From positions 1 through 62,818 of IMG/VR virus record IMGVR_UViG_3300030329_003652: 62,818 nt of DNA; one strand, 5' to 3'. Shown here one piece after another: positions 12,002 to 34,305 of the stretch. The notes below the pieces were generated by a model. The model searched no databases. It was given only the letters and a program-made list of their open reading frames with translations, and was not told the DNA's origin. Within the stretch, counting starts at the first letter, position 1. Each line of letters begins with the position of its first letter. The position numbers and the translations under genes were made by a program. The stretch comes from a virus (taxonomy: Duplodnaviria; Caudoviricetes).

Positions 12002-12212
12002 GCTTTCTTGGATAAGTGTCATGGCTTTCATCACTGGCTTGATTATGTTCCTTAAATGTTTCTAACATTCTTGAGAATATAGCAGCATCACTTTCATACA
12101 TTTCACCGTTCTTTGTTTTCTTTACAAGTTTAGCAAACTTTCTGAACACTTCTTTATCTTCCCACGTTATACATATTGTGGTGTGAGAGTTTCCTATTTT
12201 ACGTTTTGCCAT
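11970..12212 (-). CDS. ribbon-helix-helix-like DNA-binding protein
   Basis: TTICI strand followed by two helices (EDKEVFRKF, ESDAAIFSRML). Confidence 0.5.
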   Translation of the reverse strand: MAKRKIGNSHTTICITWEDKEVFRKFAKLVKKTKNGEMYESDAAIFSRMLETFKEHNQASDESHDTYPRKPTSQGHDLQG

Positions 12213-17296: not shown

Positions 17297-19263
17297 TTGA
17301 TTGTTCATCTTCATTTATCCGTGAAAAATTAATCGAGATTTTTAGTTCTAATAAATACAATTCTATAGTAACTAGCCTTAGACCTGATAGCACACTCACT
17401 ATGAATGTAATGGAAGATGATATATTTGAATTGTTTGAAGTTGAGAAAGAAGAATTCAAAGGACTGGTAAAGGAAGCAATATTTAAGATAAAATCTGAAC
17501 AATATGCTGAGGATTTAGATTCAATTAGATTCACTTTCAGAAATATTAAAGTTAATTTTGTCACAGAAGATGTAATTAAAATGCATGATCTAAATGCAAA
17601 GAATCATGAGAGAACTGTTGTCACATTTGATTGTGAAATAATAGCAGTAGAAAGAGAGAAAACATATGTTAAAAAAGCAAGTGCATACTGTCCTATATGT
17701 TATCAATCACAAGATATAGTATGTGATTATGAAAGAGACCTTAATAATTATACATGCCCTAATATTAAATGTAGAAAACATAAGTTAACTATAGGAAAGA
17801 CTGGTTTAATCACAGATAATATACAATATGTATATCTTCAGGAATTATTAAGTGATGCAAGAAATAGTGCACCTATAATATTAAGAGGTGTAACAATAGA
17901 TGAATTATCTGGTACATTATTTGTAGGTCAGAAGAAAAGAATAACTGGTCTCTATAAATCAGTAGTTAAGATGGAGAAAGATAACATAAATGAAATAGTT
18001 ATTGAAGTTATGGCAGCACAAGACTTAGAGAAAAGAAAAGAGAATTGTTTAACTGATGAAGACTTTGAGATGTTAAAATCAGAATCAAGGAAAGAAGGTT
18101 TTACAAGTAAACTGGTTGATAGTTTTGCACCTATAATTATAGGATATGATGAAATAAAATTCTCAATATTATTAATGTTAGCAGGTGGATTCTCAAAAGT
18201 TAAAAGAGGTGATATAAATATACTATTGGTTGGTGATCCATCACTTGCAAAGTCAGAATTATTAAAAGAGTGTTCAAAAATATCAACAAAGTCAATGTAC
18301 ACATCTGGTAGAGGTGCAAGTGCAGCAGGTCTTACAATAGGTCTAGTAAAAATGGATAATGGTAGTCAAGTTGCACAAGCAGGTGTCTTACCATTATGTA
18401 ATGAGGGTACAGCATGTATAGATGAGTTTGATAAGATGAACCCTAATGATAGAAGTGCAATGCATGAGGGTATGGAACAACAAACAGTATCAATAGCAAA
18501 GGCAGGTTTTAGAATGACATTACCTGCAAAGACTAGCATATTAGCTGCAGCAAACCCAAAATATGGTAAGTATGATACTAACATGACACTCATAGATAAC
18601 ATAGATATACCAGTACCATTAGTTTCAAGATTTGATTTGATATGGTTGATACGAGATAAAGTAAACTCAGCAGAAGACTCAAGGAAAGCAGAACATGTGT
18701 TGGATACATTTACTGGTCAAGATATGTCAAATAAAATATTCCTAGATAGAGAACAACTTTCATCTTACTTAGGATATGTTAAGGATTTAAAACCAACTAT
18801 AACAGAAGAAGCAAAGTCTAAACTAGCACAAATATACCAACAAATGCGTTCACTTTCAGCAAGTCATGACTCATTAGCAGTAGGAATAAGACAACTTGAA
18901 GCATTGGCTAGACTCTCTACAGCACATGCAAAACTTTTGTTTAAGAATACTGTTGACGAGAGTGATGTTTCTGCAGTTGAATTATTATTAAAACAAATGT
19001 ATGAATCACTTGGAATAAAAATGGACAGTGGTTTCACACAAGCTACATTAGTTATGGGTAAGAAAGAAACAAAAGAACAAACAGCAAATAGAATCTGGAA
19101 AGAGTGTGAAGATAATGACAAAACAGTTAAATATAAAACATTCATAACAAAATTAATGGAATCAGGATTATGGGATGATACATCTGCAAAGTCATTGTTC
19201 TCTCAATGGGAAATGAAATGTCTAATAAAACTAAAAGGTGATGGGAAATATCAGAAAACATAG
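17293..19263 (+). CDS. mcm: MCM replicative helicase
   Basis: Zn finger CPIC..CPNIKC; Walker A GDPSLAKS; SAAGLT; IDEFDKM; MEQQTVSIAKAG; AAANP; SRFD arginine finger. Confidence 0.97.
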   Translation: MIDCSSSFIREKLIEIFSSNKYNSIVTSLRPDSTLTMNVMEDDIFELFEVEKEEFKGLVKEAIFKIKSEQYAEDLDSIRFTFRNIKVNFVTEDVIKMHDLNAKNHERTVVTFDCEIIAVEREKTYVKKASAYCPICYQSQDIVCDYERDLNNYTCPNIKCRKHKLTIGKTGLITDNIQYVYLQELLSDARNSAPIILRGVTIDELSGTLFVGQKKRITGLYKSVVKMEKDNINEIVIEVMAAQDLEKRKENCLTDEDFEMLKSESRKEGFTSKLVDSFAPIIIGYDEIKFSILLMLAGGFSKVKRGDINILLVGDPSLAKSELLKECSKISTKSMYTSGRGASAAGLTIGLVKMDNGSQVAQAGVLPLCNEGTACIDEFDKMNPNDRSAMHEGMEQQTVSIAKAGFRMTLPAKTSILAAANPKYGKYDTNMTLIDNIDIPVPLVSRFDLIWLIRDKVNSAEDSRKAEHVLDTFTGQDMSNKIFLDREQLSSYLGYVKDLKPTITEEAKSKLAQIYQQMRSLSASHDSLAVGIRQLEALARLSTAHAKLLFKNTVDESDVSAVELLLKQMYESLGIKMDSGFTQATLVMGKKETKEQTANRIWKECEDNDKTVKYKTFITKLMESGLWDDTSAKSLFSQWEMKCLIKLKGDGKYQKT

Positions 19264-20623: not shown

Positions 20624-21025
20624 ATGATAAAGGATTCAGAAGGAAATATTATAGGAAAAGGAGAGTATTCTGTTTTTGAGATGCTTGTAACTCTATTTCC
20701 AGATAAAGAATTAAAAACTCAGGTGAAATTCATAGATTTATTAACAGAAGAATGGGCTGACACTGTATCAGAAAGACAGGAGAAAGAAACAATAGATATT
20801 GTAGTGTATACTGATCCAATTTTGGCAATTAGGGTGCAAGATCCACATCATAGTGGAAGAATTACTGCACAGAGAGATTTAGTACAGAAAAAAACATTAG
20901 AATGGAACGGACTTAGAGTAATAGACATTCAACATTATAATTGTCCAAATATAATGAAAGAGAATTCAAATAAAGATGCTATGAGAGAATTGCTTGAAGC
21001 ATTAAATCATGAGGGTATACATTGA
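20624..21025 (+). CDS. restriction-endonuclease-like (Vsr/DUF559-type) protein
   Basis: GE...IDIVV..AIRVQD.HH..RD..Q...L...G.RVI pattern. Confidence 0.5.
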   Translation: MIKDSEGNIIGKGEYSVFEMLVTLFPDKELKTQVKFIDLLTEEWADTVSERQEKETIDIVVYTDPILAIRVQDPHHSGRITAQRDLVQKKTLEWNGLRVIDIQHYNCPNIMKENSNKDAMRELLEALNHEGIH

Positions 21026-21207
21026 GCTGTAAAAATATTTGTCATAAATATAAAGGAAAATTTAGGTATAAAGACGGTAGTAGATACTGTGGTAATTGTC
21101 AAATTTTTCTCGTATGTGATGGTATAAAATGTCCTTGTTGTCATTGGCAATTAAGGGGTAAAAGAAGAAGTCGTTTTGGTAAAGATAGACCTAAAATTTT
21201 AAACTAA
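21022..21207 (+). CDS. CPCC zinc-finger family, copy 2
   Basis: CKNIC...YCGNC...CPCCHWQLR. Confidence 0.7.
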   Translation: MSCKNICHKYKGKFRYKDGSRYCGNCQIFLVCDGIKCPCCHWQLRGKRRSRFGKDRPKILN

Positions 21208-21425
21208 CCATACATATTATGAGTTTCCTTATCTTCACTTTCTTCTACTTTGTTTAAAACTCTATATTTCTCTTGATTTATTTTTTCTTTCACTAAGTAG
21301 AGAGAAAAATCAAGCTCTATGAAATTCATCTTGTCTTGAATACCTTCGTCTATTATTTTTTCCATTTTATCTGATACGGTCTTTATTTTATCCCAATCAG
21401 GTTTAAATGATTCTTCTTCGGACAT
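21204..21425 (-). CDS. hypothetical protein
   Basis: ORF with plausible composition. Confidence 0.55.
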   Translation of the reverse strand: MSEEESFKPDWDKIKTVSDKMEKIIDEGIQDKMNFIELDFSLYLVKEKINQEKYRVLNKVEESEDKETHNMYG

Positions 21426-21445
21426 ATTATAATTCAGTTATATAT

Positions 21446-21697
21446 CTATTTAAACTTATGCCTTATTGTTGCTATAATGCCTAATGTAACTGCTATGATT
21501 GGTATCATTTCTAATAAATCTACCCCATATAATAAAAAGTCTAAGATAATATGCTTACCAAATAAAAAGGTATTATTATGGTCTCCAAAAAAGCACTCTG
21601 CTGCAGTTATAGTGTGAGGAATTTGAAGGTATAATATGATAGCCGTGACTAGCATACTTTCTGTTATATGCCTTTCATACCAATCTAGGAAGCCCAT
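21446..21697 (-). CDS. small two-TM membrane protein
   Basis: Two hydrophobic segments. Confidence 0.6.
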   Translation of the reverse strand: MGFLDWYERHITESMLVTAIILYLQIPHTITAAECFFGDHNNTFLFGKHIILDFLLYGVDLLEMIPIIAVTLGIIATIRHKFK

Positions 21698-21750
21698 AAA
21701 TAATAAAATTAATATGTGTTATTAAATATATCTAAAATTAGGAGAGAAAA

Positions 21751-21990
21751 ATGGTTACAATGGACTTAAGGATAAATGGATATGATGATGATAATAGGGG
21801 CATATTCTATGAAGAAACTGGAAGAATAATAGTATATCTAAAAAACCATGAAACGTTAGATGATATTATGTCAACTATTCAACATGAGTTTGTTCATAAA
21901 TGTATTGCAGATTTTGATGAAACATTGGATGATGACCAAGAAGAAAAATTAATTTATCAAATGGCATGGGCTGAAGATTCTTTAGCTTGA
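21751..21990 (+). CDS. minimal HExxH zincin-like protein
   Basis: GIFY...IIVYL...TIQHEFVH...EE. Confidence 0.55.
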   Translation: MVTMDLRINGYDDDNRGIFYEETGRIIVYLKNHETLDDIMSTIQHEFVHKCIADFDETLDDDQEEKLIYQMAWAEDSLA

Positions 21991-22284
21991 ATTTTCAATA
22001 TAAGTTAGTACTTCTTCACCAGTAGAAACTATTACTGGTATTTTTTTGTATAATTGTGTTTCATATCTGTCTAATCTTTCTAAGTCTAATGCACTAACAT
22101 CAAAAATCTTACCTTCAACTTTTTTTGACATATTTCTTCTTATTGTAGGATAAATATAGAAATGACTATGTGGTATTTTTTCATAACCTAATAAAACTGT
22201 TGATTTTCCATCTATAAACCTTCCAAGTACTTTTTCTCTAATATCATCATCTAATAGAGAACCATAAGTGAATATTTTAGTCAT
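21982..22284 (-). CDS. gamma-glutamylcyclotransferase (AIG2/GGCT-like)
   Basis: IFTYGSL, YP, VEGKIF, LDRYE...Y motifs. Confidence 0.9.
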   Translation of the reverse strand: MTKIFTYGSLLDDDIREKVLGRFIDGKSTVLLGYEKIPHSHFYIYPTIRRNMSKKVEGKIFDVSALDLERLDRYETQLYKKIPVIVSTGEEVLTYIENSS

Positions 22285-22442
22285 TTTTAACCCTTTCTGA
22301 TACTATTTGATGACATCTTTCACATAAGTCTAATTTATCGAATTTTTTAACATTTTCTTCTGATAAACAGATATGACAAATCATATTGAATGTTATATAC
22401 AACCTAATTTAAGGATTTCGCTTAAAAAAAACCCTATTTTTG

Positions 22443-22492
22443 AAAAAAAGTTGTGTACAGATTTTATGGGCAATAGCCCACACACATACAAC
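22443..22492 (-). terminator. hairpin plus U7 terminator after the vWA gene
   Basis: Minus strand GUUGU-AUGUGU-GUGGGC-UAUU-GCCCAU-AAAAUCUGUAC-ACAAC-UUUUUUU. Confidence 0.65.
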
Positions 22493-22515
22493 GTGAGATA
22501 CGGATTGTAATGATA

Positions 22516-24348
22516 CTATCTTTTCATTACTCTAATAATTTCTTTCTTGAGTGTACCAGTAACATATTTACTGACATCTCTCATAGTTCTACATCTTGTA
22601 TATCTCTTGAACATTTCTTGCATTGTCCAATCTCCATACACATCACCGACACCAACCACTGCTATGTTAGGTGTGACCTTTAATGATTTTTTATAAGATT
22701 TGATTGTTTCTTTTGCAGTTACATCTCTTCTTATTCTTACACCATTCTTCTTGTAGTTTGGGAAGCCATCAGTGATAACAATCAATAGTTTCCTACGACC
22801 TTTCATCTTTGATAATTCTTGAGAACCCATCTCAATACCAAAGTGTGTTGGGGTATATCCACCATCTTGTTTGTCGAGATACTTTATATCTTCCATGTTA
22901 TTGTATCTCTGTATTCTCATGTTTCCTTTTCTGTCAGATGACCATGTGATACATTTTATGTCTATGTTGTTTGTTCCCTTTGTAGCTTCCCACAAAGTTG
23001 CAACAAGTTGTTTGACAATATCATTATGTCTAACCATACTTCCAGAAGCATCAACACTTAAACATATTGACAATCCATTATCGGCTACATCTTTTACAAA
23101 AGATTCACCATAACCATTAGCCTTCATGTTTATGTATCCTTCTATGTCTACCTCACTTCCCTCTTCAGCCAGTTGTCGTTTAGTCCTCTCTTTAAACATA
23201 CGAAGTATGTGTGAGATTTCTTTAACAACTCTCTGGTCAATCATTGGTGCTCTTGCAGAGTCGTCACGTTTAATAGGTTTCTCTCTTACAAAAACTGGGG
23301 CTACTGGTATTGCATCAGAACCTTGCATGTCCTCTCTTATTGCAGAAACTTTTGCATTTGCTCTGTCTTCTGAATCTGCCAATTCAGCTTCGTAACCTTT
23401 AACATCATCAGGGTTTGCACCGAGTTCTAAATCAGTGTAGTCCTTGACATCTTTAAGTCTCTCAGCATCTCTTGCACTACCATGTCCATCTTCTTGTAGA
23501 AAGTTATCATTCCTATTAACATCTCTGAATGTTTCCTTTCTGATTTCTCTATCAGTTTGGTAAACTTCTTCTTTGGCTTCAGCATGTTTCTTAAGTTTCT
23601 CTGCTCTTTGCTCAGCAGTAGAATTCCTATCAGATAGGTATTCATCATTCAATGCTTTGCATTTCTTCATTGCTTCATCACGTTGCTTCATTTTCTTAAG
23701 AGTTTCATCTATCTTCTCATCAAGATATGGTTTTATTTTTCTCAACACAACCATTGTTGCTTTAATATCCTTATGCTCTACGTCATGAAGATATTTTGAG
23801 AGAAAACCATACTTTGATTTCTCAACATAATCAGTTCTAAAGAATCTTTCAGCTAGTAGTACCAATGATGGGTGGTCAATATAATCTAGTTCTTTACCCA
23901 AATTCTTTCTCACTTTGATAAAGTCTCGGACATTACCTAGATATATTCTACCCCACAATGATTCTATTCTTTGGTCTTCAATAACATTCATTGCTTCTTG
24001 GTATATCTTATATGCTATCTCGTAATCCTTGTCCTTTTGTCCAACATCTGACCATTTCAATGCCCATCGCTCCAATGTTTTCATTGCTCTGTCATCAAAA
24101 GAGTCAAAGAGAATATGTGCCAGCTCGTGGTTTATGGCAGAGTTGCCATCTATACCTTTGAGTTTTGGCTTGGATTTCTCTATCGTGAATCCTTTCTTAG
24201 TCTTCCAACATATATTCACACCCTTTCTGTATTCAACAGTAATAGGTACGTTCTTTAGTTGGCTTACTATACCTGCTTTCTTTCTGTCATAATCCTGTTC
24301 CGACAAGTAGTCGGTAGTGTCAAGACTTACGTCATTGAACTTTACCAT
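22516..24348 (-). CDS. vWA-domain partner of MoxR ATPase (CobT/NorD-like)
   Basis: HELAH..IEDQRIE N-domain; MIDAS DASGSM, TP, ITDG. Confidence 0.85.
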   Translation of the reverse strand: MVKFNDVSLDTTDYLSEQDYDRKKAGIVSQLKNVPITVEYRKGVNICWKTKKGFTIEKSKPKLKGIDGNSAINHELAHILFDSFDDRAMKTLERWALKWSDVGQKDKDYEIAYKIYQEAMNVIEDQRIESLWGRIYLGNVRDFIKVRKNLGKELDYIDHPSLVLLAERFFRTDYVEKSKYGFLSKYLHDVEHKDIKATMVVLRKIKPYLDEKIDETLKKMKQRDEAMKKCKALNDEYLSDRNSTAEQRAEKLKKHAEAKEEVYQTDREIRKETFRDVNRNDNFLQEDGHGSARDAERLKDVKDYTDLELGANPDDVKGYEAELADSEDRANAKVSAIREDMQGSDAIPVAPVFVREKPIKRDDSARAPMIDQRVVKEISHILRMFKERTKRQLAEEGSEVDIEGYINMKANGYGESFVKDVADNGLSICLSVDASGSMVRHNDIVKQLVATLWEATKGTNNIDIKCITWSSDRKGNMRIQRYNNMEDIKYLDKQDGGYTPTHFGIEMGSQELSKMKGRRKLLIVITDGFPNYKKNGVRIRRDVTAKETIKSYKKSLKVTPNIAVVGVGDVYGDWTMQEMFKRYTRCRTMRDVSKYVTGTLKKEIIRVMKR

Positions 24349-25281
24349 CTACATTGTCACCCCAAATATCTCGTTGATTTGTTTCTTAACCAACTCTCGT
24401 TGTGCAGGTTCACTAAACTTTGATAGTACAGCATTTTTTATACTGCGTTCAAGAGGTTTGTTCAACTCGGACTGTGACCACATTCGGTAACAATCTGCGA
24501 ACTGTACCAAGTCTCTTGGTGACAAAGAGTAGTCAACATCTGAATTAATTCTCAGATTATGTATGTTCTGAGTTAATGTCAGCATTGGTTCTACAACAGT
24601 TTCCTGTGGTACACCATCCCATGAAACTATACGTTTCAAGTTGTCGCTGTTTGGGTATTCCCAAATTGCTCCAATGAATCTACTCTGTGCATCTTCTGTA
24701 AGTGTGTTCACACCTGCATAAGTACTGGGGTTCATAGTAGCGATTACAGATAACCTGCAATCTTCAGGCAAACTATACAGTTTACCGTTTGCAACAATAG
24801 CTTTCCTATCATCAGTGACAGGGTTTGTTGCCTTTTGCATCTCATGTGTCATGGCATTGAACTCGTCAAGATACAATACCCCTCTCTTGAATTTCCTTAC
24901 TACTTCAATAGCAGTAGGCAATACTCCAAGTTGGAAGTACGAACCAAATTCATTTATCTGTGGTCTTCCTATCAAGTCACCTATTCTTGTTCCTTCTGAA
25001 CAATTAAGTGAGATGATTGGAATGTTATGTTTCACACAGATGTTGTGAACAAGTTGTGTCTTTCCTAATCCTTTGTCACCTTCAATGAGATAGTTGCCAC
25101 CTTTTAAGATGACATGTTCAAGCTCATCTGCTTCATCAGTAAGTTGTACATAATCAACTCCCCACTTTCGAGGAAGATAATTATCGAAGTCAATTTCTGC
25201 AGTTGGAACTTTGTACACTCTAGGTGTATCAGTTTTTTCATTGGTCTTTATAGACTCAATGAATTCTTGTTTGTCAGTCAT
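24349..25281 (-). CDS. MoxR-family AAA+ ATPase (CobS/CbbQ-like)
   Basis: GDKGLGKT, LYLDEFN, ATMNP, SRF, SPRDL. Confidence 0.9.
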   Translation of the reverse strand: MTDKQEFIESIKTNEKTDTPRVYKVPTAEIDFDNYLPRKWGVDYVQLTDEADELEHVILKGGNYLIEGDKGLGKTQLVHNICVKHNIPIISLNCSEGTRIGDLIGRPQINEFGSYFQLGVLPTAIEVVRKFKRGVLYLDEFNAMTHEMQKATNPVTDDRKAIVANGKLYSLPEDCRLSVIATMNPSTYAGVNTLTEDAQSRFIGAIWEYPNSDNLKRIVSWDGVPQETVVEPMLTLTQNIHNLRINSDVDYSLSPRDLVQFADCYRMWSQSELNKPLERSIKNAVLSKFSEPAQRELVKKQINEIFGVTM

Positions 25282-25326
25282 TTTTCATCTCTCCTATCAT
25301 ATAAATATATGATTGTAATATGTAAT

Positions 25327-25512
25327 TCATCCGTAATCAGCCCCACATTCGTGACATACATAGTATTCATGGTAATCACCATCTTCATAGTAATCTCTTT
25401 GAACATACATAGGTACTTCACAATCGTGACACATACCTCTTCCATGTTCTTTACACCATTTGTCAACGTCATACTCTGTGTCTTTACCACAACCTTTTAC
25501 TTTACAAATCAT
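25327..25512 (-). CDS. small Cys-rich protein
   Basis: CKVKGC, CKEH, CHDC, CHEC. Confidence 0.55.
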   Translation of the reverse strand: MICKVKGCGKDTEYDVDKWCKEHGRGMCHDCEVPMYVQRDYYEDGDYHEYYVCHECGADYG

Positions 25513-25736
25513 CTTCTACCAAACCTTTTTCCTTTTCTGTGATGTACCTTTCCTTCTGGTGTTGACCACTGTTCATGAATCATTTCATATAGTTTCAAGT
25601 CATCAACCATATTGTTTTGATACTTCATGCAGTTTGTGTTAACACATTTGAAGAAACCATATGTTGTAGAAAGCTGACACTTATGATTACATTCAGGGCA
25701 TCTAGGTAATTGTACGTTCATTATGGTTCTTCCCAC
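25509..25736 (-). CDS. small zinc-ribbon protein
   Basis: CPEC...CVNTNC. Confidence 0.5.
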   Translation of the reverse strand: MGRTIMNVQLPRCPECNHKCQLSTTYGFFKCVNTNCMKYQNNMVDDLKLYEMIHEQWSTPEGKVHHRKGKRFGRR

Positions 25737-25966
25737 ATTGCTTTTGACAATGTTACTTCGTTGAATATGGCACGTATTAATTCCTTTACTTCCTCATCTT
25801 CCATATGTCTACACCTATGTTTTCTGACATGGTATATAGTTCTCATCATTTCATCTGCATTACCACCAGAAATGACAGAGTTTATAGCTAGGTGTACTAG
25901 CATCCTCTCTTTCTCATTAAGTTCCATATCCATCATCCCCTGTAAGGCATAGTTTACACTCATCAT
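25721..25966 (-). CDS. hypothetical protein
   Basis: Part of a tightly packed minus-strand run; true start may be a downstream ATG. Confidence 0.5.
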   Translation of the reverse strand: MMSVNYALQGMMDMELNEKERMLVHLAINSVISGGNADEMMRTIYHVRKHRCRHMEDEEVKELIRAIFNEVTLSKAMWEEP

Positions 25967-26273
25967 TGTACCAGATTTTAATATCTGATATGTACTTTGA
26001 CTGTGGTGTTGCTACCAATGGATACTCATACTTACCTACCTGCTTTTTACATGTAGCACATACCTTTGGTACTTGTGGTTTGTTTGGGTATTCTGCCCAT
26101 AAATCACTGTGGATTTTTATCTGTTGTGCCAAGTCCTCATTCTTTAAGAACTCTAGCTCTCTATCTTTCATCCTAGATTGTGGTATCCACATCCACTGCA
26201 TACGTCTAAGTTCTGCTTGGAACTTTCTACGCTGTCTATCTGAGATAGATATTCCTTCGTATTTTTTAGTCAT
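25917..26273 (-). CDS. hypothetical protein with CxxC pairs
   Basis: AGGAGGTG SD upstream; CATC and CKLC. Confidence 0.6.
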   Translation of the reverse strand: MTKKYEGISISDRQRRKFQAELRRMQWMWIPQSRMKDRELEFLKNEDLAQQIKIHSDLWAEYPNKPQVPKVCATCKKQVGKYEYPLVATPQSKYISDIKIWYNDECKLCLTGDDGYGT

Positions 26274-26275
26274 GT

Positions 26276-26503
26276 CTACATCACCTCCTCGTTATTAGAC
26301 ATTTTTACTGCGATTATATGATAACAATTCAAAGTGAATTGATAACCAACACAATCACATTCATACTCATCTGTACTCTTAGTGACTGTATGCATCTTGG
26401 TCTCATCAGAAGCTGATGGAAGAATCCAAGTGTTATCTTCAACTTGTGTTATCTTATCCAATACTTTTTCTGCTTTTCTTTCTTGTTGTTTACTCATTGG
26501 CAA
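26276..26503 (-). CDS. SWIM zinc-finger protein
   Basis: CDC...CYHIIAV. Confidence 0.75.
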   Translation of the reverse strand: MPMSKQQERKAEKVLDKITQVEDNTWILPSASDETKMHTVTKSTDEYECDCVGYQFTLNCYHIIAVKMSNNEEVM

Positions 26504-26804
26504 ACACTTCCTTTTCTACTTTTTGCATTTCTTCTGTCCATAATACATCACTGACAGGTTTATACAATTTTGATTGTTCATCGTCTCCAACTTTAACAAT
26601 CATTTTTCTCTCATTGAGATAAAAATTAAGACCTTCTGGTGTTAAAAATATCTCTGCTCTTGCACCTTCATATGCAACATTCCTATTGACTCCTATCTTT
26701 GGTACAGTCCAAACGACTAGACCTCCAAAAGAATCAACGTTCTTTATTGTTTGTTCTCTAAAACTCATGCTACCACCTCCTTTGTGTTTACAAGTTTTAT
26801 TCAT
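26490..26804 (-). CDS. hypothetical protein
   Basis: TATA before 26804; alternative SD-led start at 26768. Confidence 0.55.
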   Translation of the reverse strand: MNKTCKHKGGGSMSFREQTIKNVDSFGGLVVWTVPKIGVNRNVAYEGARAEIFLTPEGLNFYLNERKMIVKVGDDEQSKLYKPVSDVLWTEEMQKVEKEVFANE

Positions 26805-26857
26805 ACTATTATATGCACTCCGACATTTATAAATCTTAGCTCATTTTCTAAACGGTG

Positions 26858-27091
26858 TTATAATTTTTTTACAAATTCAACTGCATCTTCGTGTTGTGTT
26901 TTCCAATCACTTACACATCTTTCTTGATAGTCAAGCCATTCATCTGTTTTCTTATTAAGAATCATAGTTTCAAATGGATTACCATCATAACATGCTTCTG
27001 GTTGAATGAATACAGTACTTATCCAGTAGTCACCTACTGTTGTTTCTGCTTTTCTTAGTGACACAAATGAAATATGTTTTTCGTTGTTCAT
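26858..27091 (-). CDS. conserved-type phage hypothetical protein
   Basis: ISTVF...PFETMI...YQER...H motif common in phage early proteins. Confidence 0.6.
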   Translation of the reverse strand: MNNEKHISFVSLRKAETTVGDYWISTVFIQPEACYDGNPFETMILNKKTDEWLDYQERCVSDWKTQHEDAVEFVKKL

Positions 27092-27294
27092 TTTAATTCA
27101 TCCTCTAATTGTTTATCCCCATAAGGATATATTTCATTTTCACGATAGTATATCATCTCTTTATATTCATCATCAAATTTGTATGGTTTTTCTATAAAAT
27201 ATAATAGGTTTTCTATGTTAAAACCTTTAACTTCTACAAGAAAGTTTGCAAGAGATATAATATTACCATAGTCTTCTAACCATTCTGATTTCAT
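27088..27294 (-). CDS. hypothetical protein
   Basis: ATGA-coupled in the minus-strand run. Confidence 0.55.
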   Translation of the reverse strand: MKSEWLEDYGNIISLANFLVEVKGFNIENLLYFIEKPYKFDDEYKEMIYYRENEIYPYGDKQLEDELK

Positions 27295-27632
27295 TTTTTA
27301 ATTCTCTCCAAGAATTGTATGAATCTATCACCATATACTCTATCACCGATAGCATCTTCTGAATAGTGACCTAGACATGAGGTAGAAAAGCGTTTTTGTA
27401 AACCTGTTCCTTCTGTTTTTCTACGTCTTCCTTGCCTGACTTTACCTACACCTTTAGTATATGTACTGTCACTATATCGTGATACTTTAGTTGTCTTAAC
27501 AACACCACCATATAGTTCAATCCAGAATTGTCTTTCTTCTATTGCCTGTTGTTTGGTTTTGAAGCATATAATTTGTCCAGTACCTCTTCCTCCAACAGTT
27601 ACTTGCCACCAAGTATCTCTATCATATATCAT
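27291..27632 (-). CDS. hypothetical protein
   Basis: ATGA-coupled. Confidence 0.55.
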   Translation of the reverse strand: MIYDRDTWWQVTVGGRGTGQIICFKTKQQAIEERQFWIELYGGVVKTTKVSRYSDSTYTKGVGKVRQGRRRKTEGTGLQKRFSTSCLGHYSEDAIGDRVYGDRFIQFLERIKK

Positions 27633-27925
27633 TTCGATTCCTCCTCTGGTTTAAGTACACTGGAAAGACGGGTGTGTGGGCTGTGTTTTTCACATTCTAA
27701 CCATAGGTCATGTGATGCTAACTCATATAGAATATCCAAACGGACTTCAAGTTCAAACATTCTATCATAGATTAGTTTAAGATCATGTGCTCTAACTGGC
27801 ATTTTGTTCTCTTTCTCTAACCACCTTCGAATGGCACGTATTTCGTCATGAAGTCGTTGTTGAATTATTTCAACTGTTAAATGCCCATAGGGGTTTATAT
27901 CTCTTAATTCCTCTTTACTGGTCAT
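27629..27925 (-). CDS. hypothetical protein
   Basis: ATGA-coupled; AGGTGGTGA upstream. Confidence 0.55.
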   Translation of the reverse strand: MTSKEELRDINPYGHLTVEIIQQRLHDEIRAIRRWLEKENKMPVRAHDLKLIYDRMFELEVRLDILYELASHDLWLECEKHSPHTRLSSVLKPEEESK

Positions 27926-28113
27926 TGTTTGTCACCACCTAAGGTCTTCATTTCAAGTAAAAGGGTTAGACCTGCTTGTATTTTTATGACTTTTGCTGTC
28001 ATATCTTCGAGACTCATATCTTTATGATATTGAAGTGACTCTCCAATCTCATCTATACTGAATCTACATTCTCTCCATGTTCTTGACATAGAGTCATAGT
28101 TTATGTCTTCCAT
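27922..28113 (-). CDS. hypothetical protein
   Basis: GGAGGTGA SD upstream. Confidence 0.6.
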   Translation of the reverse strand: MEDINYDSMSRTWRECRFSIDEIGESLQYHKDMSLEDMTAKVIKIQAGLTLLLEMKTLGGDKQ

Positions 28114-28147
28114 ATAATCACCTCCATGTGTTATGAAATAACTGTAA

Positions 28148-28435
28148 TTAGCGTTCGCTACGCCTTTCTTTCACAATATCTATAACAGTTGCAATTACTG
28201 CTGAGTATTCTGCTACTGCTTCAATGTCATTAATGTTAAATTTCTCTACTGCAATGATTATATCAAGCATATCAATCTCTTCTATCGGTTTTGGATAGAA
28301 TAGGTTAGTCAATTTTCTTGATAAGCTGTAAGCATTTGGTACTTCAGGATTATCTTTTATTAAACCCAACTCTACCATTTCTTGATATATTACATGTAAT
28401 CTATCAGTAAGTTTTTCTTTCATTGTAATAACCAT
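28148..28435 (-). CDS. hypothetical protein
   Basis: GAGGT upstream. Confidence 0.55.
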   Translation of the reverse strand: MVITMKEKLTDRLHVIYQEMVELGLIKDNPEVPNAYSLSRKLTNLFYPKPIEEIDMLDIIIAVEKFNINDIEAVAEYSAVIATVIDIVKERRSER

Positions 28436-28622
28436 TTAACCTCGCCACGTATAATGTTTGCTCCAGTACGATACTTCGTAGCATCATGTCTCTCTTCATG
28501 ACGTTTCTTACGTTCAGTTAATAGGTCATCATCTAAAAAGAACTCTTGACCACATAGATTACATTTTGTTATAGTGTTCATCATAATATTAATTCTAATA
28601 TAGCATGCCTAACTCTCTTTAG

Positions 28623-28682
28623 AAAAAAGTCTCTACTCTGCCCCCCCTCGTGTACAACTGTTGAGGGGAAGTTAGTAGCAGA
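28623..28682 (-). terminator. GC-rich hairpin plus U6
   Basis: Minus strand CUACU..UUCCCCUC-loop-GAGGGGGG..AGUAG..UUUUUU. Confidence 0.55.
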
Positions 28683-28699
28683 GAGTTATACGTATGGGT

Positions 28700-28918
28700 T
28701 TAACCTTCCATAGCTAACGCTAGCTGTGGATTGTCTAACAATTCATACTTGTATGTATGTCTATCATGTTTAGGATACTGTGTCATACACTTGAATGTGT
28801 ATGGTATCCACCTACCACCAAACATATCATCAATGAATATTTTAATATCCATTAACACACGAAAGATTGGTGTTGGTGCGTGGAATGATAGCCATCGCAT
28901 TATAAATACGTTCATCAT
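28700..28918 (-). CDS. hypothetical protein
   Basis: ORF between two hairpins. Confidence 0.45.
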   Translation of the reverse strand: MMNVFIMRWLSFHAPTPIFRVLMDIKIFIDDMFGGRWIPYTFKCMTQYPKHDRHTYKYELLDNPQLALAMEG

Positions 28919-28996
28919 AATATTGTAGCATTGACAATTCTAAATTGTATTAAGTAGTTAGGTCATCTGCTTAGCCCTACTGCTACTGTTATCTGT

Positions 28997-29929
28997 CTAA
29001 CCTTTATTCAAATCAAAGAAGAGTTTAGTTTGTTCATCTAACTCATCTTGTCCTTCAGTCATCTGATTCTTTAGATGTCTTGCTTCATTCTCTGCGAAGT
29101 ATTCAACATCATAGATACTATAACCATAACTTAGATAGTCTAGTATCTCTTCATTACTAAAAGCATAGTCTCTCTTAATATCATAGAACAATGCTTTCTC
29201 TTCAGCTGTCATGCCTTCAAGTTCAGCATCTAAATCATCATTGACTTCTGTCTCTGATTTATATTGTATGCCACCTCTTCTATTAGTGGCACTAAAATAA
29301 CCACCACCAATAGATTGTTCAAAGTCATTGAATGACTTTGGTATGAAGTAATCATTACTACATGCATTACCTTCGTGGTTAATCCAACCACTACCATACT
29401 TCTTGATACCTTTGCTTGTTAGTATTGCAAGTTTGTTCCAACCTGTAACTACCTTAGCTAATTTACCAACACTACCCATTCTGCTAGCAAGGATAGCCAT
29501 TACCCTGCTGTCACTGTATGCACCAGTTGGTAGTTTGACTGGTTTCTTTGACTTCTCACAGTATTCTATGATAGTCTCTGCATAATCTGACCATGTTCCG
29601 TTATGGAATAGTAGGTCACACTTTAAGTTCTCACCCTTCAAGTCTAAAGGACTGTTGTCCTTAACTTGGAAAGGATGGCATAGTTCCTTCTGAACATCAC
29701 CAACACTTGCTATCCTAAAGTGAATGATAGCAGTGGTTATACCCTTAGGTTTAAGAGTCTTCTGAATGATACTGTAAATCTTCTTAGCCTTGATGCCTTT
29801 ATGGTAAGAACGTGTTCCGTTCTTGTTCAACCATGCGATTGAACCACCATGACTGTTGAGAGATTCAGCACTTTTCAGTGTCTCTAAGGTAGGGTACTTA
29901 CCATCTTCTGTGCAAATTATCACACACAT
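28997..29929 (-). CDS. class II (Ntn) glutamine amidotransferase
   Basis: Cys2 (MCVII), NSHG, HFRIAS, HPF, HNG, SDS; strong SD. Confidence 0.9.
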   Translation of the reverse strand: MCVIICTEDGKYPTLETLKSAESLNSHGGSIAWLNKNGTRSYHKGIKAKKIYSIIQKTLKPKGITTAIIHFRIASVGDVQKELCHPFQVKDNSPLDLKGENLKCDLLFHNGTWSDYAETIIEYCEKSKKPVKLPTGAYSDSRVMAILASRMGSVGKLAKVVTGWNKLAILTSKGIKKYGSGWINHEGNACSNDYFIPKSFNDFEQSIGGGYFSATNRRGGIQYKSETEVNDDLDAELEGMTAEEKALFYDIKRDYAFSNEEILDYLSYGYSIYDVEYFAENEARHLKNQMTEGQDELDEQTKLFFDLNKG

Positions 29930-29961
29930 GATACCACCTCCTTTGTAGTTGTATGTTTTAT

Positions 29962-30930
29962 TTAATATCTATTAACAAACTCTTGTGCGTTAGTATAAGA
30001 AACCAATGAGGTTTCCATAGAACTCAAGAACTTGTTGATAGTATCGTAAACGAATTTAATCCAGAGTGAAGCCATCTTGCTCTGCTTGAAAGCAGGTGCT
30101 ACTCTTATCTCAACTGTTTTATGAAGATTGTAGCAGTAATTAACAAAGGTATATCTATCATCATGATAGTGTTCCGTTGCCATTATCTGTTCGAATCCTC
30201 TGTAGTAATCGTGACAGAATGTATTCTCACCATCAATACGTTGCCAAAACTGTTCGTTCTTGCAACGCATGTTCTTACCCCACACTTTTGCTTGTATCTT
30301 TAGATAGTCATGGAAATGTCTATCCATTAACACTGACATAAGTCGTCGGTTAATCAGTGATGCGTGAACATGAAAGCCACAAGTATGATTTACATAAGTT
30401 GGATAATTACCAGATTGGTGCTGATAACTCATCAACTCAGGCATTGTCATAGCAGGGCTTGGAAGTTCACCATCCATACCACTTTCCTCTTCACAGTTAC
30501 AGTAACATCCACATTCACGGTTACATCTTTGGTCTAAATGGTCACACTCAGCACAATCGTAAGTGCTGTTTATATCCATCCAGTTCTCGTGACACGTTTC
30601 ACAAGGTTGCTCTTCACTACACACTTTGCCTTCATCTGTTTCATTTATGCAATCTTCTCGGTGTTGGTTACAACCACATTCTTCAACGTGTTCATAACAA
30701 ACAGAGCATAGCATACATTCCCAACAAGAACAGTCGTCGGCACTGTATCCACACTCAGTACATTGCATACATTCGTCACATTGGCATTCGTCAAAACAAT
30801 AGCACTCTTCACGTTCTCGTGCTCTGCCTGTACCGACAGAACCGTCGTGAATATGTCTATCATCTGGGTGAGCGAAGTAACCTTCAGCTTCTGAACCCAT
30901 GAGGTTTACGAAGTTTTTGTTTGTTGTCAT
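29962..30930 (-). CDS. COOH-NH2 (glutamine synthetase/GCS-fold) amidoligase with 25-Cys insert
   Basis: GSEAE, HDGS, ELPSP, TCGFHVH, RY..VN, TVEIR motifs of the putative amidoligase family; adjacent to GATase II. Confidence 0.8.
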   Translation of the reverse strand: MTTNKNFVNLMGSEAEGYFAHPDDRHIHDGSVGTGRAREREECYCFDECQCDECMQCTECGYSADDCSCWECMLCSVCYEHVEECGCNQHREDCINETDEGKVCSEEQPCETCHENWMDINSTYDCAECDHLDQRCNRECGCYCNCEEESGMDGELPSPAMTMPELMSYQHQSGNYPTYVNHTCGFHVHASLINRRLMSVLMDRHFHDYLKIQAKVWGKNMRCKNEQFWQRIDGENTFCHDYYRGFEQIMATEHYHDDRYTFVNYCYNLHKTVEIRVAPAFKQSKMASLWIKFVYDTINKFLSSMETSLVSYTNAQEFVNRY

Positions 30931-30939
30931 AATTATAAT

Positions 30940-31605
30940 CTATCTAATCCTTCTAGCAGGTGCATCAGTATCGAGAGTATCTAATGATTGTTCGGCATCA
31001 TAGTATATCTCTGACCAGAAACTTCTATCAGCACGTACTCGTTTAGCTATTTCATCAAAGAGTTTAAACTGCTCTTGAATGTTATAACTTTGTCTTGCGT
31101 ACCACTGATGACATACTTCTGACATACTAGTCAAGCAATTATTAACAAATTCATCTATCATCTCTTGCGAGAATGGTTTACGTGGGTTTATGAACACCCA
31201 ACCATGTTTTATAAATGATTTGTGACCTGCCCAATTAAGATGACTTCTAAACGTATCTCTATCAGGTGAACCACTAAATAGATAGTCGTCATCCCAATAG
31301 TCAATATTTAACAGTCGTCTAAACGTGCCTGTCTCATGTTGCATGACTCTGACAATCTTCCTTAACTTTTTATTACCCATGAATAGAATACCCCAAGTAT
31401 CATACCGTTTAGTAGGTTTAAACACTACTGACTGTAGATATGGGTTTTCATGTGGCATTTCAAAGTATCTTAGACCTAATTGACTCATTATCTTTGGTCG
31501 ATAATAGCCAAGCCTAGGAAGCTCGTCATCATTATTACGCCAAGCCAATATAGATTGTCTTACGTAATCCTGCTCGAAATCATTAACTTGCGTTAATAAG
31601 TTCAT
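30940..31605 (-). CDS. hypothetical protein, first large gene of the cassette
   Basis: 221-aa aromatic-rich ORF. Confidence 0.6.
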   Translation of the reverse strand: MNLLTQVNDFEQDYVRQSILAWRNNDDELPRLGYYRPKIMSQLGLRYFEMPHENPYLQSVVFKPTKRYDTWGILFMGNKKLRKIVRVMQHETGTFRRLLNIDYWDDDYLFSGSPDRDTFRSHLNWAGHKSFIKHGWVFINPRKPFSQEMIDEFVNNCLTSMSEVCHQWYARQSYNIQEQFKLFDEIAKRVRADRSFWSEIYYDAEQSLDTLDTDAPARRIR

Positions 31606-31901
31606 TAAAAAATAGGCTACCTATCTGTAGCCTTGATGGGAAGATATTGGTTAGAAGCATCTAACCTACGGTTTGCATTATCATCACGAAGCACTGACCA
31701 AAAGCCATGCTCGCAACGATATTTATACCACTGTGAATACCTCTTACAGTAGCCACAATCACATAAATTACTCATTGTAATATTAACAAAACGGATATTG
31801 CTGTAGAACATACTGTAATATTAACAATATGCACTATATTACGTACCCTTCTTGCTTGTTGTTTGTTCATCTTAATGTTTTATATGTCACATTTTTGATT
31901 A

Positions 31902-31943
31902 GGGGCAAGTAGTTCACACTACCTGCCCCATACGTATATAAGC
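31902..31943 (-). promoter_or_regulatory. TATA-like element plus 11-bp inverted repeat at the cassette start
   Basis: Minus strand CTTATATA followed by GGGGCAGGTAG-TGTGAA-CTACTTGCCCC. Confidence 0.5.
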
Positions 31944-32000
31944 CTTGCTCAGATTTTTCTGAATACAAGCGTTTTTACGTCTTACGTGACGGTTAATCAT

Positions 32001-32475
32001 AAAAAATAAGGGGTAGGGTATGACAGTCGTATTTCTACCGTCGCCATACCCAATCCGTATCTCTGTTCCAGTAGACAGTTATAGCTATTGCTAGCCTTTC
32101 CTACCTACTGTGTTGTATGTGTGCCTGTGGCTATTGCCGTTGAATCAGTCTAAGGTGTTTAAACCCTGAAATCATAGCTAGCACTAAAACTATGACCGAC
32201 CTCATATTTTGTAAATCCTAACATTCACTAGTACAGATAGAGCACGCTCAAGGCGATGGTTATTCTTCATTCTTTAGCAAACTGGAAGTAAACTTAGTTA
32301 TGTTTAGGCATAACTCAATCTACGACCTCGTAGAAATCCGAACCACTGTACGTTCAGAGACCTGCCCCCTGAGGGGTGGGTGTCTTACACCATACCTACC
32401 ATCCCATTTCATTTAACGGTTCATGAGCAATTCCACAGTGTACCGTGCCTGAGATAGTGAGTCAGGTACGCATGG
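32001..32475 (-). ncRNA. candidate large structured ncRNA (~470 nt), family unknown
   Basis: No ORF of 60 aa or more. Many hairpins; G-U pairs favour the minus strand; GCAA and GAAA tetraloops; 3' hairpin followed by U6. Boundaries approximate. Confidence 0.65.
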
Positions 32476-32657
32476 AAAAAAAACGGTTTTTGGAAAATCG
32501 GTGGCTACGATTCGGAAAAAATTAGATACAAATTAGAACCCTATTTAAATACAATTAGGACATAATATCTTCCTAGTATCCTTTATATAGGAGTTCGAGG
32601 AGAGACAATTACTACATAATCCAGTAGTACGTAATCGGTGCTTTTTTTGCCAAAATT

Positions 32658-32816
32658 TTAATCTGAACATCTGTCAATACATTCCTTTATAATCTTAAGC
32701 CTGTATGTATTCTCAGGGGTGGTAGGTTCTTTACTCACACGTTCATAAACTCGTTCAAAGTCTTCGAGGTGCTTTTTTCTTAAAGGTTCGTCATCAGGAT
32801 ACATTTCCCAAGGCAT
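32658..32816 (-). CDS. 52-aa hypothetical protein (not in ORF track)
   Basis: MPWEMYPDDEPLRKKHLEDFERVY...; CTTATATA ~25 nt upstream. Confidence 0.55.
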   Translation of the reverse strand: MPWEMYPDDEPLRKKHLEDFERVYERVSKEPTTPENTYRLKIIKECIDRCSD

Positions 32817-32847
32817 ACTATATATTAATATACAACATATATAAGGC

Positions 32848-33048
32848 TTACGACGTTCTATAATATTTAACTTGACATTCCTTAGAACAATATTTACGGT
32901 TGTTATTATTTTGTGTCTTTATATATAAAGAGGGGTGATTACACTGTTTACACACAAGAGATACAAATACATTATCTTTCATATTATCTTGTCCTTCTAA
33001 AGTCTTCATTATGGCAAGAACATCTACAGTGTTTATCACATGCTGCAT
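32848..33048 (-). CDS. small zinc-finger protein
   Basis: CKQC...YCSKEC. Confidence 0.55.
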   Translation of the reverse strand: MQHVINTVDVLAIMKTLEGQDNMKDNVFVSLVCKQCNHPSLYIKTQNNNNRKYCSKECQVKYYRTS

Positions 33049-33075
33049 TAACGCAGCTAGTACATTTTAATTTCA

Positions 33076-33405
33076 TTATTGATCCTCTATTAGATAATCT
33101 AAATGCGTTTCTTTTATATGTCCTTCACGCCTACCATCAGCAATATCAGCATCAGATAGAACATGTGCTTCAAGTTCATGTGTATCACATGAATTGTCGT
33201 TACACGTACATTCTGCTTTGCTTGAATCATATTTGTCTAACTCATTACCCATAGCAGGTTTTGTATCTGAAATCATTGTGCCTTGCACTCTAAATAAACA
33301 CCTTATAAGTTGTCTCTTTGAATGTTCCCCAAATGGTTCAGTACATGCCACGCATGTCAATTTCTCTAATTGTTTGTTTCCTAACATGTATATCATATGG
33401 TGCAA
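33076..33405 (-). CDS. Cys/His-rich hypothetical protein
   Basis: CVAC..GEHSK..LIRCLFR and CTC...C..H. Confidence 0.55.
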   Translation of the reverse strand: MHHMIYMLGNKQLEKLTCVACTEPFGEHSKRQLIRCLFRVQGTMISDTKPAMGNELDKYDSSKAECTCNDNSCDTHELEAHVLSDADIADGRREGHIKETHLDYLIEDQ

Positions 33406-33444
33406 CCCTTATATAAATCTTTATTAAAAATAAAAAAGGAAAGG

Positions 33445-34305
33445 TTAAAGTCCTAAGACTTCAACCATTACCCTCAGTTGCTCCATTGCAACTGCATACC
33501 AACTATGGGCTAGCGTTTTCCACTCATCTCGCTCAGATGTCATGTTAGCCAATTCAAGTTGAGTTGAACTCAATTCAACTTGTGTTGAAGCCAATTCAGC
33601 GTTAGCCGAATTTACCTGACCTTCAAGGCTAAATCTTTCCGAACTCCATGAAGTGGCGTTTAATTGCAAAGTCTCGATTTGACCTTCCAATTCGAAAATC
33701 TTTGCAACGCTTTCGTCGCTCGCTACGCTTGTGGCGTTTAGGGCAATTACTTGTGCCGTTAGTGACTGTACGTTAGACTCCAACCCCTCGATTTGCTCTC
33801 GTTGCATCGCTATTGTTTCGAGAGATGAATTTAGCGAATTCGTCAAGTCGACAAGTTGTTGTTGAAACTCGCTGTCGTCAACCGTTACAAGTTCTACCTG
33901 ATAGATAGGATCTTGCACTTGTTGTTGAACAGGTTGTTGCACTGGTTCTGGTTCTGGTGCTACATATGGTGCTAATATGTGTAGAATTGAATGTTCCCCA
34001 GTATTCAAGTCTTTGATGTAATAGTCTTCTGCAATGTAGCATGTATTGCCACAGTTTTCCGTTGGAAGTTGAATTACTAAAACTTCGCCTACGGCTACTG
34101 TGCCTTCAAACCATCCATATGCAACAAAGTTCATTGGTGCTGAACCGTCAAGATTGTTGAAAGTAATGTGCCCATCTTCCATAACTGATAAGTCAAATGG
34201 GAAACTTGTTACTTCTACACTGTTTGGTGCACCTTCTGCGTTTGCATATGCAATGAATGTTGCAAACACTGCAAATACGGCTAAAGTTGTTATTACACTT
34301 TTCAT
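33445..34305 (-). CDS. secreted protein: beta domain (degenerate cupredoxin-like?), P/Q linker and coiled coil
   Basis: Signal peptide AYANA; ITFNNLD; PEPEPVQQPVQQQ; long heptad region. Confidence 0.6.
   Translation of the reverse strand: MKSVITTLAVFAVFATFIAYANAEGAPNSVEVTSFPFDLSVMEDGHITFNNLDGSAPMNFVAYGWFEGTVAVGEVLVIQLPTENCGNTCYIAEDYYIKDLNTGEHSILHILAPYVAPEPEPVQQPVQQQVQDPIYQVELVTVDDSEFQQQLVDLTNSLNSSLETIAMQREQIEGLESNVQSLTAQVIALNATSVASDESVAKIFELEGQIETLQLNATSWSSERFSLEGQVNSANAELASTQVELSSTQLELANMTSERDEWKTLAHSWYAVAMEQLRVMVEVLGL

Follow-up and report, generated by a model that had tools for sequence, protein, structure and literature searches.

The DNA analysed here, a stretch of 62,818 bases (hereafter the window), is a whole virus record rated complete (IMG/VR record IMGVR_UViG_3300030329_003652). 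Judged from its portal protein (PHROG 7.5e-39) and its MCM-type helicase of 656 amino acids (17293-19263, plus strand), for which 19 of 20 matching records in the phage collection were archaeal viruses by organism name, the virus is a tailed archaeal virus, and the sequencing runs containing it carry the label marine. A cassette of open reading frames (ORFs) lies on the minus strand and is preceded by 846 nt (31812-32657) that form the longest ORF-free stretch of the window. Within this gap lies a putative non-coding RNA (ncRNA), three segments of which, called guide blocks below, are complementary to the untranslated stretch at the 3' end (3' UTR) of the last cassette gene, the target. Both sites are non-coding. 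The features concerned are as follows, in window coordinates.

22516-31811, minus strand: cassette of ORFs, flanked by the guide and target sites and covered by RNA contigs
24349-25281, minus strand: AAA_5 ATPase gene, penultimate in the cassette (Pfam AAA_5 1.1e-14)
22516-24348, minus strand: vWA gene, last in the cassette (Pfam VWA 2.2e-08), with its stop codon at 22516-18
22469-22507, minus strand: target in the vWA 3' UTR, starting 8 nt past the vWA stop
32129-32138, minus strand: guide block 1, GGCAAUAGCC, exact reverse complement of 22469-22478, paired in the predicted heteroduplex
32112-32123, minus strand: guide block 2, CACACAUACAAC, exact reverse complement of 22481-22492, 1 nt 5' of the conserved hairpin
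32069-32110, minus strand: scaffold hairpin with an outer stem, a GAAAG/UAUAA internal loop and a GCAA-capped inner stem
32051-32063, minus strand: guide block 3, GAGAUACGGAUUG, exact reverse complement of 22495-22507, 5 nt 3' of the hairpin
32001-32050, minus strand: likely ncRNA terminator with a terminal hairpin, a C-rich tail and a U6 run, the stem being present in the minimum free energy and centroid folds
32042-32320, minus strand: ncRNA body in the RNA libraries, from contigs of metatranscriptome runs X4 and X18, which give neither strand nor exact ends
31932-31944, minus strand: TATA-like box GGCTTATATACGT, a putative promoter element past the ncRNA terminator and ahead of the first cassette ORF
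32411-32537, minus strand: strongly conserved upstream DNA motif of repeated GTATCTAATTTTTTCCGATTTGTA-like units, with a TATA-like box at 32410-32417

Complementarity of the two sites

The three blocks are colinear, with gaps of 2 and 2 nt on the target against 5 and 48 nt on the guide, in the positions and order that the initial annotation had reported. By reading of the sequence, the CA of the 5-nt guide gap is also able to pair, which brings the pairable bases of the target to 37 of 39. When chains were scored with weights for composition and costs for gaps, the score was 56.9 bits, which none of 300 shuffles reached (mean 36.5, standard deviation 2.8, maximum 47.6), and the next-best independent chain in the real window scored 39.9 bits. 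By plain count of matched letters, the 35-nt chain was reached in 3 of 200 dinucleotide shuffles, which is not significant, because AT-rich words match easily; the shuffled null that the initial annotation had called for was thus passed by the weighted score only. In the hybridisation check proposed at the same time, the predicted energy (ddG) of the heteroduplex was -33.2 kcal/mol, beyond all 100 shuffled targets (-6.0 +/- 2.5, minimum -14.2). Guide block 2 has a predicted mean P(unpaired) of 0.78 in the free RNA.

An assembly artefact, which had been raised as a doubt, was ruled out by independent assemblies covering both sites. The independent assembly L054 was 99.95% identical to the window across 14,474 nt and carried the exact target, while contigs of DNA run X3, from a different sample in the study to which a possible source sample belongs, extended across both sites; among the differences listed for X3, only C>T at 31998 lay near either one. 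The exact pattern of block 2 plus block 1 had no match in viral contigs, and DNA similar to the 846-nt gap was not found in the phage collection.

The self-folding hairpin in the 48-nt guide gap proved to be real, at 32069-32110, one base off from the arm sequences first given for it. On the minus strand its arms, CAGUAGGUAG/CUGUCUACUG, are fully paired, with two G-U pairs at which the plus strand would mismatch. The hairpin was present in the window and in five related loci (L002, L006, L008, L136 and L146; relatives are given by L numbers throughout); the core stayed constant among them while the outer stem changed. Across these six sequences all 54 of 54 cells of the outer stem were paired, with 4 compensatory pairs, and the covariation score was reached by 0 of 500 shuffles. 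One G-U pair was invariant and a U-G pair occurred in two of the six sequences, both of which would mismatch on the opposite strand. Because of the covariation and the invariant G-U, there is good evidence that the hairpin acts as a single-stranded element of the cassette strand. Two more pattern scans for the hairpin returned 42 and 39 stretches, mostly chance matches. Five stretches from new contigs were judged to be family members (L136, L138, L146, L170 and L154, the last being the contig of L002), and they brought no new guide-target pair: L138 and L170 have the same guide as L002 in records that hold the guide side only, and L136 and L146 have new guides on short contigs.

At the DNA level, nhmmer showed the gap to be conserved in L008 (E 6.6e-32) and L006 (E 2.4e-24), and parts of it in others. 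L008 and L006 also have a counterpart of the terminal hairpin, the ACCCC and the T-run of the ncRNA. A coding role for the gap was rejected, as no conserved ORF was found; a peptide starting MSTWLA is common to L006 and L008, and in the window it is stopped after 3 codons. No Rfam family was found in the window at the gathering score, and a scan of 31700-32800 at E values up to 5 gave mir-17 and DdR13 only, both at chance level. No tRNA was found for the ncRNA region. Judged by eye only, the junction strands do not fit a hammerhead or hairpin-ribozyme core.

The upstream motif at 32411-32537 was matched in L002, L004/5, L006, L008, L059, L063 and L096 by nhmmer or blastn, and it was not covered by RNA contigs. 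It looks like a DNA control element, possibly a promoter/operator or a replication origin, and from its position it would serve as a promoter. L096 retains the motif without the ncRNA, and coding sequence directly follows it there. The GTATCTAATTTTTTCCGATTTGTA-like units are repeated to about 32600 and are followed by TTTTTTTTCCATG...ACACTGTGGAA, an arrangement kept in at least 8 genomes. Of the TATA-like box at 31932-31944, a TATAT-ACGT block was kept in 5 aligned genomes.

Guide-target pairs in related viruses

With the vWA protein as sole query, no close relative was found in viral contigs, but an alignment of homologs did find relatives. These vWA relatives, at 42-51% identity, lie on long viral and metagenome contigs, and the gene order is retained. 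The contigs found for the closest relatives (vWA at 90% and 70% identity), L054, L055 and L056, end before the ncRNA. In six of 11 comparable genomes, the guide, immediately 5' of the hairpin, has its complement 7.9-10.7 kb further downstream. These genomes represent five lineages, L059 and L063 being counted as one because they have one guide in common. The sequences of the pair differ from lineage to lineage, and their homologous positions are kept. Thus the prediction that the RNA at 32 kb pairs with the end of the cassette RNA gained comparative support, since relatives appear to keep the complementarity while both sites change. Guide block 3 was found in the window lineage only, and the relatives pair via the 5' flank alone. 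The pairs of the relatives are as follows.

L002: 17 nt and an adjoining 21 nt (one G-A mismatch), contiguous on the target and split in the ncRNA into two pieces with 66 nt between them
L059: 35 nt with 3 mismatches and 1 G-U
L063: 22 nt with 1 G-U
L006: 18 nt with 2 G-U, and two weaker sites besides
L008: 14 nt

Sites for the L006 guide lie at 12938-12955, after the last rightward gene, at 12056-12077, 3 bases before the GGACT start codon, and at 10061-10075, in the vWA coding region (14 of 15 bases).

A restricted search compared the 45 nt 5' of the hairpin with the DNA from -60 to +1600 around the vWA stop. The longest exact cognate matches were 12, 14, 14, 17, 14 and 11 nt, against a longest exact match of 10 nt in 166 non-cognate comparisons. 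In a 6x6 matrix that allowed G-U pairs and mismatches, the cognate target was best in each row, or joint best within L059/L063. Predicted hybridisation ddG ranged from -18.6 to -37.0 kcal/mol in the six genomes, each beyond all 100 shuffled targets. Position matters here, because an unrestricted search (7.5 kb against 1.66 kb) gave 13-16-nt inverted matches in unrelated loci as well.

These matches in unrelated loci, together with the plain letter count that 3 of 200 shuffles equalled, are what could be said for the pair having no function, as the leftover of an inverted duplication or a chance match with coincidental counterparts in relatives. We find this hardly credible, as the weighted score was reached by 0 of 300 shuffles and the six cognate pairs exceeded all 166 non-cognate comparisons at the same two positions. 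Moreover, the sequences differ among lineages, and so they do not descend from a single duplication.

To judge from assembled contigs, the population appears to be hypervariable at both sites. In DNA run X5, a contig of a relative had seven small insertions or deletions crowded into 22465-22515, and at the ncRNA region (32006-32463) contigs of the same run skip 456-638 bases. Target and guide are thus each a small variable island within a conserved frame. The targets of L002, L059 and L063 all begin 9 bases after a conserved hairpin and T-run, and the target sequence of L002 is unrelated to that of the L059/L063 lineage. L056, the contig of a relative with 70% identity in vWA, also has a target sequence different from that of the window.

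Near-perfect Watson-Crick identity combined with full sequence turnover is also what concerted evolution gives, and the two sites flank a discrete cassette. Both features would fit an element acting at the DNA level, in which inverted repeats serve site-specific inversion or module exchange, looping by a lineage-specific protein, or pairing of single-stranded DNA in replication, with copying keeping the repeats identical. Such an element is distinctly improbable in our view. In the complete genome there was no match to Phage_integrase (PF00589) or Resolvase (PF00239), for which control genomes were positive, and 0 matches to the TnpB/Cas12f-like PF07282; the orientation of the cassette relative to its neighbours was the same in every relative examined, and no strand-changing joint was among those listed for DNA runs X3 and X5, in contigs that drop rare variants. 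A recombination role had been offered in the initial annotation as an alternative. In addition, the halves of the guide are split by foldable inserts (48 nt in the window, 66 nt in L002) and the targets are contiguous, which is in keeping with pairing of strands and not with a duplicated double-stranded protein site. By reading of the matches, G-U pairs are tolerated on the cassette strand (one in L059, one in L063 and two in L006) and A-C is not seen, the invariant G-U of the hairpin points to a strand-specific single strand, and both regions were found in RNA libraries.

RNA coverage and the end of the cassette message

Downstream of the target, the following features were recognised.

22423-22460, minus strand: CUGUACACAAC, the local partner of target block 2, followed by U7 (22443-22449) and U8 (22424-22431)
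22406-22421, minus strand: element GCGAAATCCTTAAATT resembling a transcription factor B recognition element (BRE) and TATA box, a putative promoter of the next unit, kept in L008, L059, L002, L063 and L056
22277-22384, minus strand: small ORF of 35 codons, MICHICLSEE..., with CxxC...CxxC, unannotated, overlapping the GGACT start by 8 bases
21982-22284, minus strand: GGACT (gamma-glutamyl cyclotransferase-like) gene (Pfam GGACT 4.5e-12)

The vWA stop, the local hairpin and the U7 run had been described correctly for the window. A TTGTACACAAC-like motif with T-runs was kept in L005, L008, L056 and L059. A conserved (T)TGTACACAAC motif lies at 22450-22460, just upstream of the T-runs, and likewise in L005, L008, L056, L059, L002 and L063, being doubled in L002 and L063. 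As a motif repeated genome-wide, TTGTACACAAC was rejected (2 matches against 2.43 expected), and a scan for bacterial-type terminators did not flag the target hairpin. Small ORFs resembling that at 22277-22384 precede GGACT in L008 and L056. GGACT orthologs lie downstream of the main target in every lineage with a pair, and the target follows the last cassette gene; being placed in the spacer upstream of GGACT in each case, the target strengthens the suspected connection with this gene. Between the target and the GGACT promoter-like element, about 300 additional non-coding bases are present in L002 (12183-12470) and L063 (12179-12465) and missing in the window and L059; they may be a second structured element.

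Expression was assessed in two metatranscriptome runs (X4 and X18) and two DNA runs (X3 and X5), all as assembled contigs. Both regions were present in the RNA libraries, and the flanks were almost silent. In X4, six contigs with depths of 11.5-343 covered 22466-32320; 21001-22302 had a depth of 0-3.5, 32719-33586 one of no more than 3.6, and 32321-32718 had no cover. The depth fell from about 108 to 0-3.5 immediately past the target, with 1.57 over 21869-22302 and, by arithmetic from bin means, practically nil over 22303-22465. Since the flanks were silent while DNA run X3 had a flat depth of 165-202 throughout, the X4 signal represents RNA and not carried-over DNA. Within 21001-34000, missing RNA cover was not counted as absence at 27061-27211 and at small breaks common to the DNA run. 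Run X18, another sample of the same study with a relative about 95% alike, had its deepest piece on the cassette and ncRNA at 32042-32317 (depth 74.8, against 5.8-22.6 for the cassette pieces). A loose end in X18 carries an L006-like guide, and therefore the element of the L006 lineage appears to be expressed too. The contigs are hints of the expression expected at 32 kb, covering 32.04-32.32 kb and the cassette to 22466 without indicating the strand, whereas the RNA did not extend to about 32475 as first proposed, the contigs of X4 and X18 both ending at 32317-32320.

On these grounds we propose, with moderate confidence, a viral antisense RNA that, most likely in trans, would base-pair to the cassette message at its 3' end and define or protect this end. 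The 846-nt gap would be the gene of an ncRNA, at least about 280 nt long in the RNA libraries and running in the same direction as the cassette, and apparently equipped with promoter-like and terminator-like signals of its own. In its 3' domain, a lineage-specific antisense guide would be set against the conserved scaffold hairpin, and in the window virus this guide would consist of three blocks arranged around the hairpin. The partner of the guide, most likely reached in trans, would be the untranslated 3' end of the cassette RNA, at a site immediately past the vWA stop that is closely followed by the T-runs and by the promoter of the small Zn-ribbon/GGACT unit. The resulting long duplex (37 of 39 target bases) would mark, protect or otherwise control the fate of the 3' end of the message, and might thereby keep transcription of the cassette separate from that of the GGACT unit. 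The end of the X4 contig 3 nt past the edge of the duplex is in keeping with this. The complementarity, its co-variation in five lineages, the covariation and strand of the hairpin and the RNA cover of both regions are observed; that the two RNAs meet, that they act in trans and that the effect is stabilising we infer. Action in trans is favoured because terminator-like and promoter-like signals separate the ncRNA from the first ORF, and because contig depths vary along the cassette and X18 has the RNA as a separate, deeper piece.

If the ncRNA acted in cis, a single transcript of about 9.9 kb would pair its 5' leader with its own 3' end as a panhandle, like the cyclisation of RNA-virus genomes or the processing stems of archaeal ribosomal RNA (rRNA) operons. 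Guide and target do lie on one strand in the same orientation, RNA cover begins and ends near the two sites, and the X4 contig 28374-32320 is unbroken from the ncRNA past its terminator-like site into the cassette genes; a single contig over two genes is, however, no proof of a single transcript. We consider intramolecular looping unlikely, given the terminator-like and TATA-like signals between the ncRNA and the first ORF, the divergent X4 contig depths along the cassette (343, 44, 11.5 and 124) and the separate 280-nt piece in X18 that is deeper than the cassette pieces. Furthermore, the L006 guide has three candidate sites, the duplex is without a bulge-helix-bulge motif by inspection, and no joint between the two sites was among those listed for X4 or X18, in contigs from which rare forms are dropped.

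The target could also control read-through. In an antitermination mechanism, the guide would capture target block 2 and free CUGUACACAAC before U7, so that polymerase continues into the Zn-ribbon/GGACT unit. This would accord with the ability of block 2 to pair either locally or with the ncRNA, and with the position of the target, always upstream of a GGACT ortholog. It is nevertheless quite unlikely, because the GGACT unit was silent in X4 (depth 0-3.5) while the ncRNA region was abundant, cover still ending at 22466; for the same reason, the antiterminator function suggested in the initial annotation is disfavoured. U7 is followed by another T-run (U8) and by a distinct promoter-like element, and the relatives lack the same competing hairpin, a hairpin and T-run preceding the target in L002, L059 and L063. 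The earlier description of the target as part of a terminator hairpin therefore holds for the window and not for these three relatives. Archaeal RNA polymerase relies for termination mainly on T-runs and not on hairpins, which likewise counts against antitermination.

Several observations weigh against the antisense RNA that we propose. Strand, exact ends and levels cannot be read from the contigs, and for the X4 contig end at 22466, 3 nt beyond the target, the local GGGCUAUUGCCC hairpin or erosion of the contig before U7 is an equally good explanation. For folding, the RNA has a modest z-score of -1.96, and the opposite strand one of -1.21. Five of the 11 comparable genomes are without such a pair: L005-type genomes and L007 have the ncRNA at the homologous place with no match above background after vWA, and L096, L003 and L093 have no recognisable ncRNA, the upstream region of L003 giving no match above background to the DNA after vWA. 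The 14-nt match of L008 lies inside a small ORF and is at background unless its position is counted. In L002, L059 and L063 the hairpin and T-run precede the target, which would therefore be present in read-through RNA only. Watson-Crick pairing is almost complete in the duplexes and G-U pairs are few, which DNA-level copying would fit too. An archaeal small RNA with extended 3' UTR complementarity does alter mRNA decay, but in the available part of that report its duplex hastens decay and does not protect (PMC3674436).

Three further observations concern the surroundings. The Amidoligase_2 match in the cassette is weak (Pfam 0.0022). The first large ORF of the cassette encodes a protein of 221 amino acids (30940-31605, minus strand) and is preceded by an ORF of 64 amino acids; tblastn at E 1e-5 found no relative of this protein in any fetched related locus, and the relatives have an ORF of 195-222 amino acids at the equivalent position. 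Outside the cassette, the deepest X4 RNA contig in 21001-34000 was 33671-34000 (depth 614.6), in the gene 33445-34305 (minus strand), which has weak coiled-coil and minor-head-protein matches.

Relation to known systems and meaning

By analogy, the element may be regarded as a virus-encoded antisense regulator, the nearest analogue of which in logic would be the c4 RNA of phages P1 and P7. The c4 RNA comes from the start of an operon and has the orientation of its target, and more than one of its short segments pairs further down the operon. It is a processed RNA of 77 nt whose nearby target overlaps a region of ribosome binding; between P1 and P7, the guide changes along with the target. As with c4 and the CI RNA of satellite P4, an RNA of the virus would here regulate messages of the same virus, and the ncRNA is encoded upstream of the operon that holds its complementary sites, in the same orientation. 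In contrast to the bacterial c4, the element belongs to an archaeal virus, its RNA is at least 276-280 nt long, and its target lies 9.5 kb away after a stop codon in the window and in a 3' UTR or spacer, also kb away, in the relatives. It matched no Rfam model, and we take the C4 model to have been among the 4227 Rfam families scanned. [quoted passage not shown]

Long-range pairing of the 5' and 3' flanks of a transcript is a likeness to the processing stems of archaeal rRNA operons. The bulge-helix-bulge motif has two 3-nt bulges on opposite strands with a helix of 4 bp between them, and its processing gives circular intermediates. By inspection, the duplex here differs from it, with 1-nt and 2-nt bulges on the ncRNA side, an unpaired AC in the target and a hairpin junction, and its 5' partner lies about 180 nt inside the RNA and not at the end. 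Flavivirus cyclisation sequences are similar as complementary 5' and 3' elements kb apart that co-vary between lineages; they belong to RNA genomes and pair for replication, whereas the partners here would be a message and a small RNA of a double-stranded DNA virus. An invertible segment of the Gin/Hin/Cin type does not fit, as no serine or tyrosine recombinase is encoded.

A variable guide beside a structured scaffold recalls H/ACA and C/D small RNAs, the omega RNA of TnpB and the bridge RNA of IS110. In the window and L002 the guide halves flank the hairpin, so that a contiguous target would form a three-way junction. An H/ACA pocket has 3-10 nt per side around an unpaired U-N, an ACA box and a k-turn. 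The arms here are longer, 12 and 13 nt in the window and 12-21 nt overall, and the unpaired target dinucleotide is AC; unlike H/ACA and C/D RNAs, the element has no box motifs and no Rfam match, and by inspection its GAAAG/UAUAA loop is without GA on the 3' strand. No TnpB-type protein was found and the neighbouring ORFs have no such Pfam or PHROG match, in searches that left out IS110-type families.

In Sulfolobus, RNA-257 is similarly archaeal, trans-encoded and extensively complementary to a 3' UTR, that of the 1183 mRNA, according to the available part of the report (PMC3674436). Its duplex alters the fate of the mRNA; unlike the viral element described here, it is host-encoded and transposon-derived, and the same part of the report describes no scaffold hairpin or lineage-specific guide swapping for it (PMC3674436).

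A wider and rather unlikely interpretation is that the element belongs to a family of programmable guide RNAs in marine archaeal tailed viruses, in which the scaffold hairpin would present a swappable antisense segment of 14-38 nt addressed to the end of the virus's own early cassette, the guide-target pair forming an RNA-guided operon boundary for 3'-end formation or insulation. If this were true, the lineage-specific guide and address could be a code of self and non-self between co-infecting relatives, like P1/P7 heteroimmunity, and a dedicated protein partner may bind the scaffold.

To our knowledge, from literature searches aimed at other questions, hardly any regulatory RNA is known from archaeal viruses, and no description exists of one from the abundant marine archaeal tailed viruses. 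The present element would add an ncRNA family with a clear division into scaffold and guide, whose predicted partner site lies kb away and co-varies in five lineages, with first signs of expression in ocean metatranscriptomes. It offers a testable case of RNA-RNA control in an archaeal virus and a natural set of orthogonal guides and targets for the study of specificity. If the pair defines message ends or discriminates related viruses, it would represent a new layer in the organisation of early gene expression in these viruses, for an early cassette that comprises AAA ATPase/vWA and GGACT genes and a weak amidoligase-like match.

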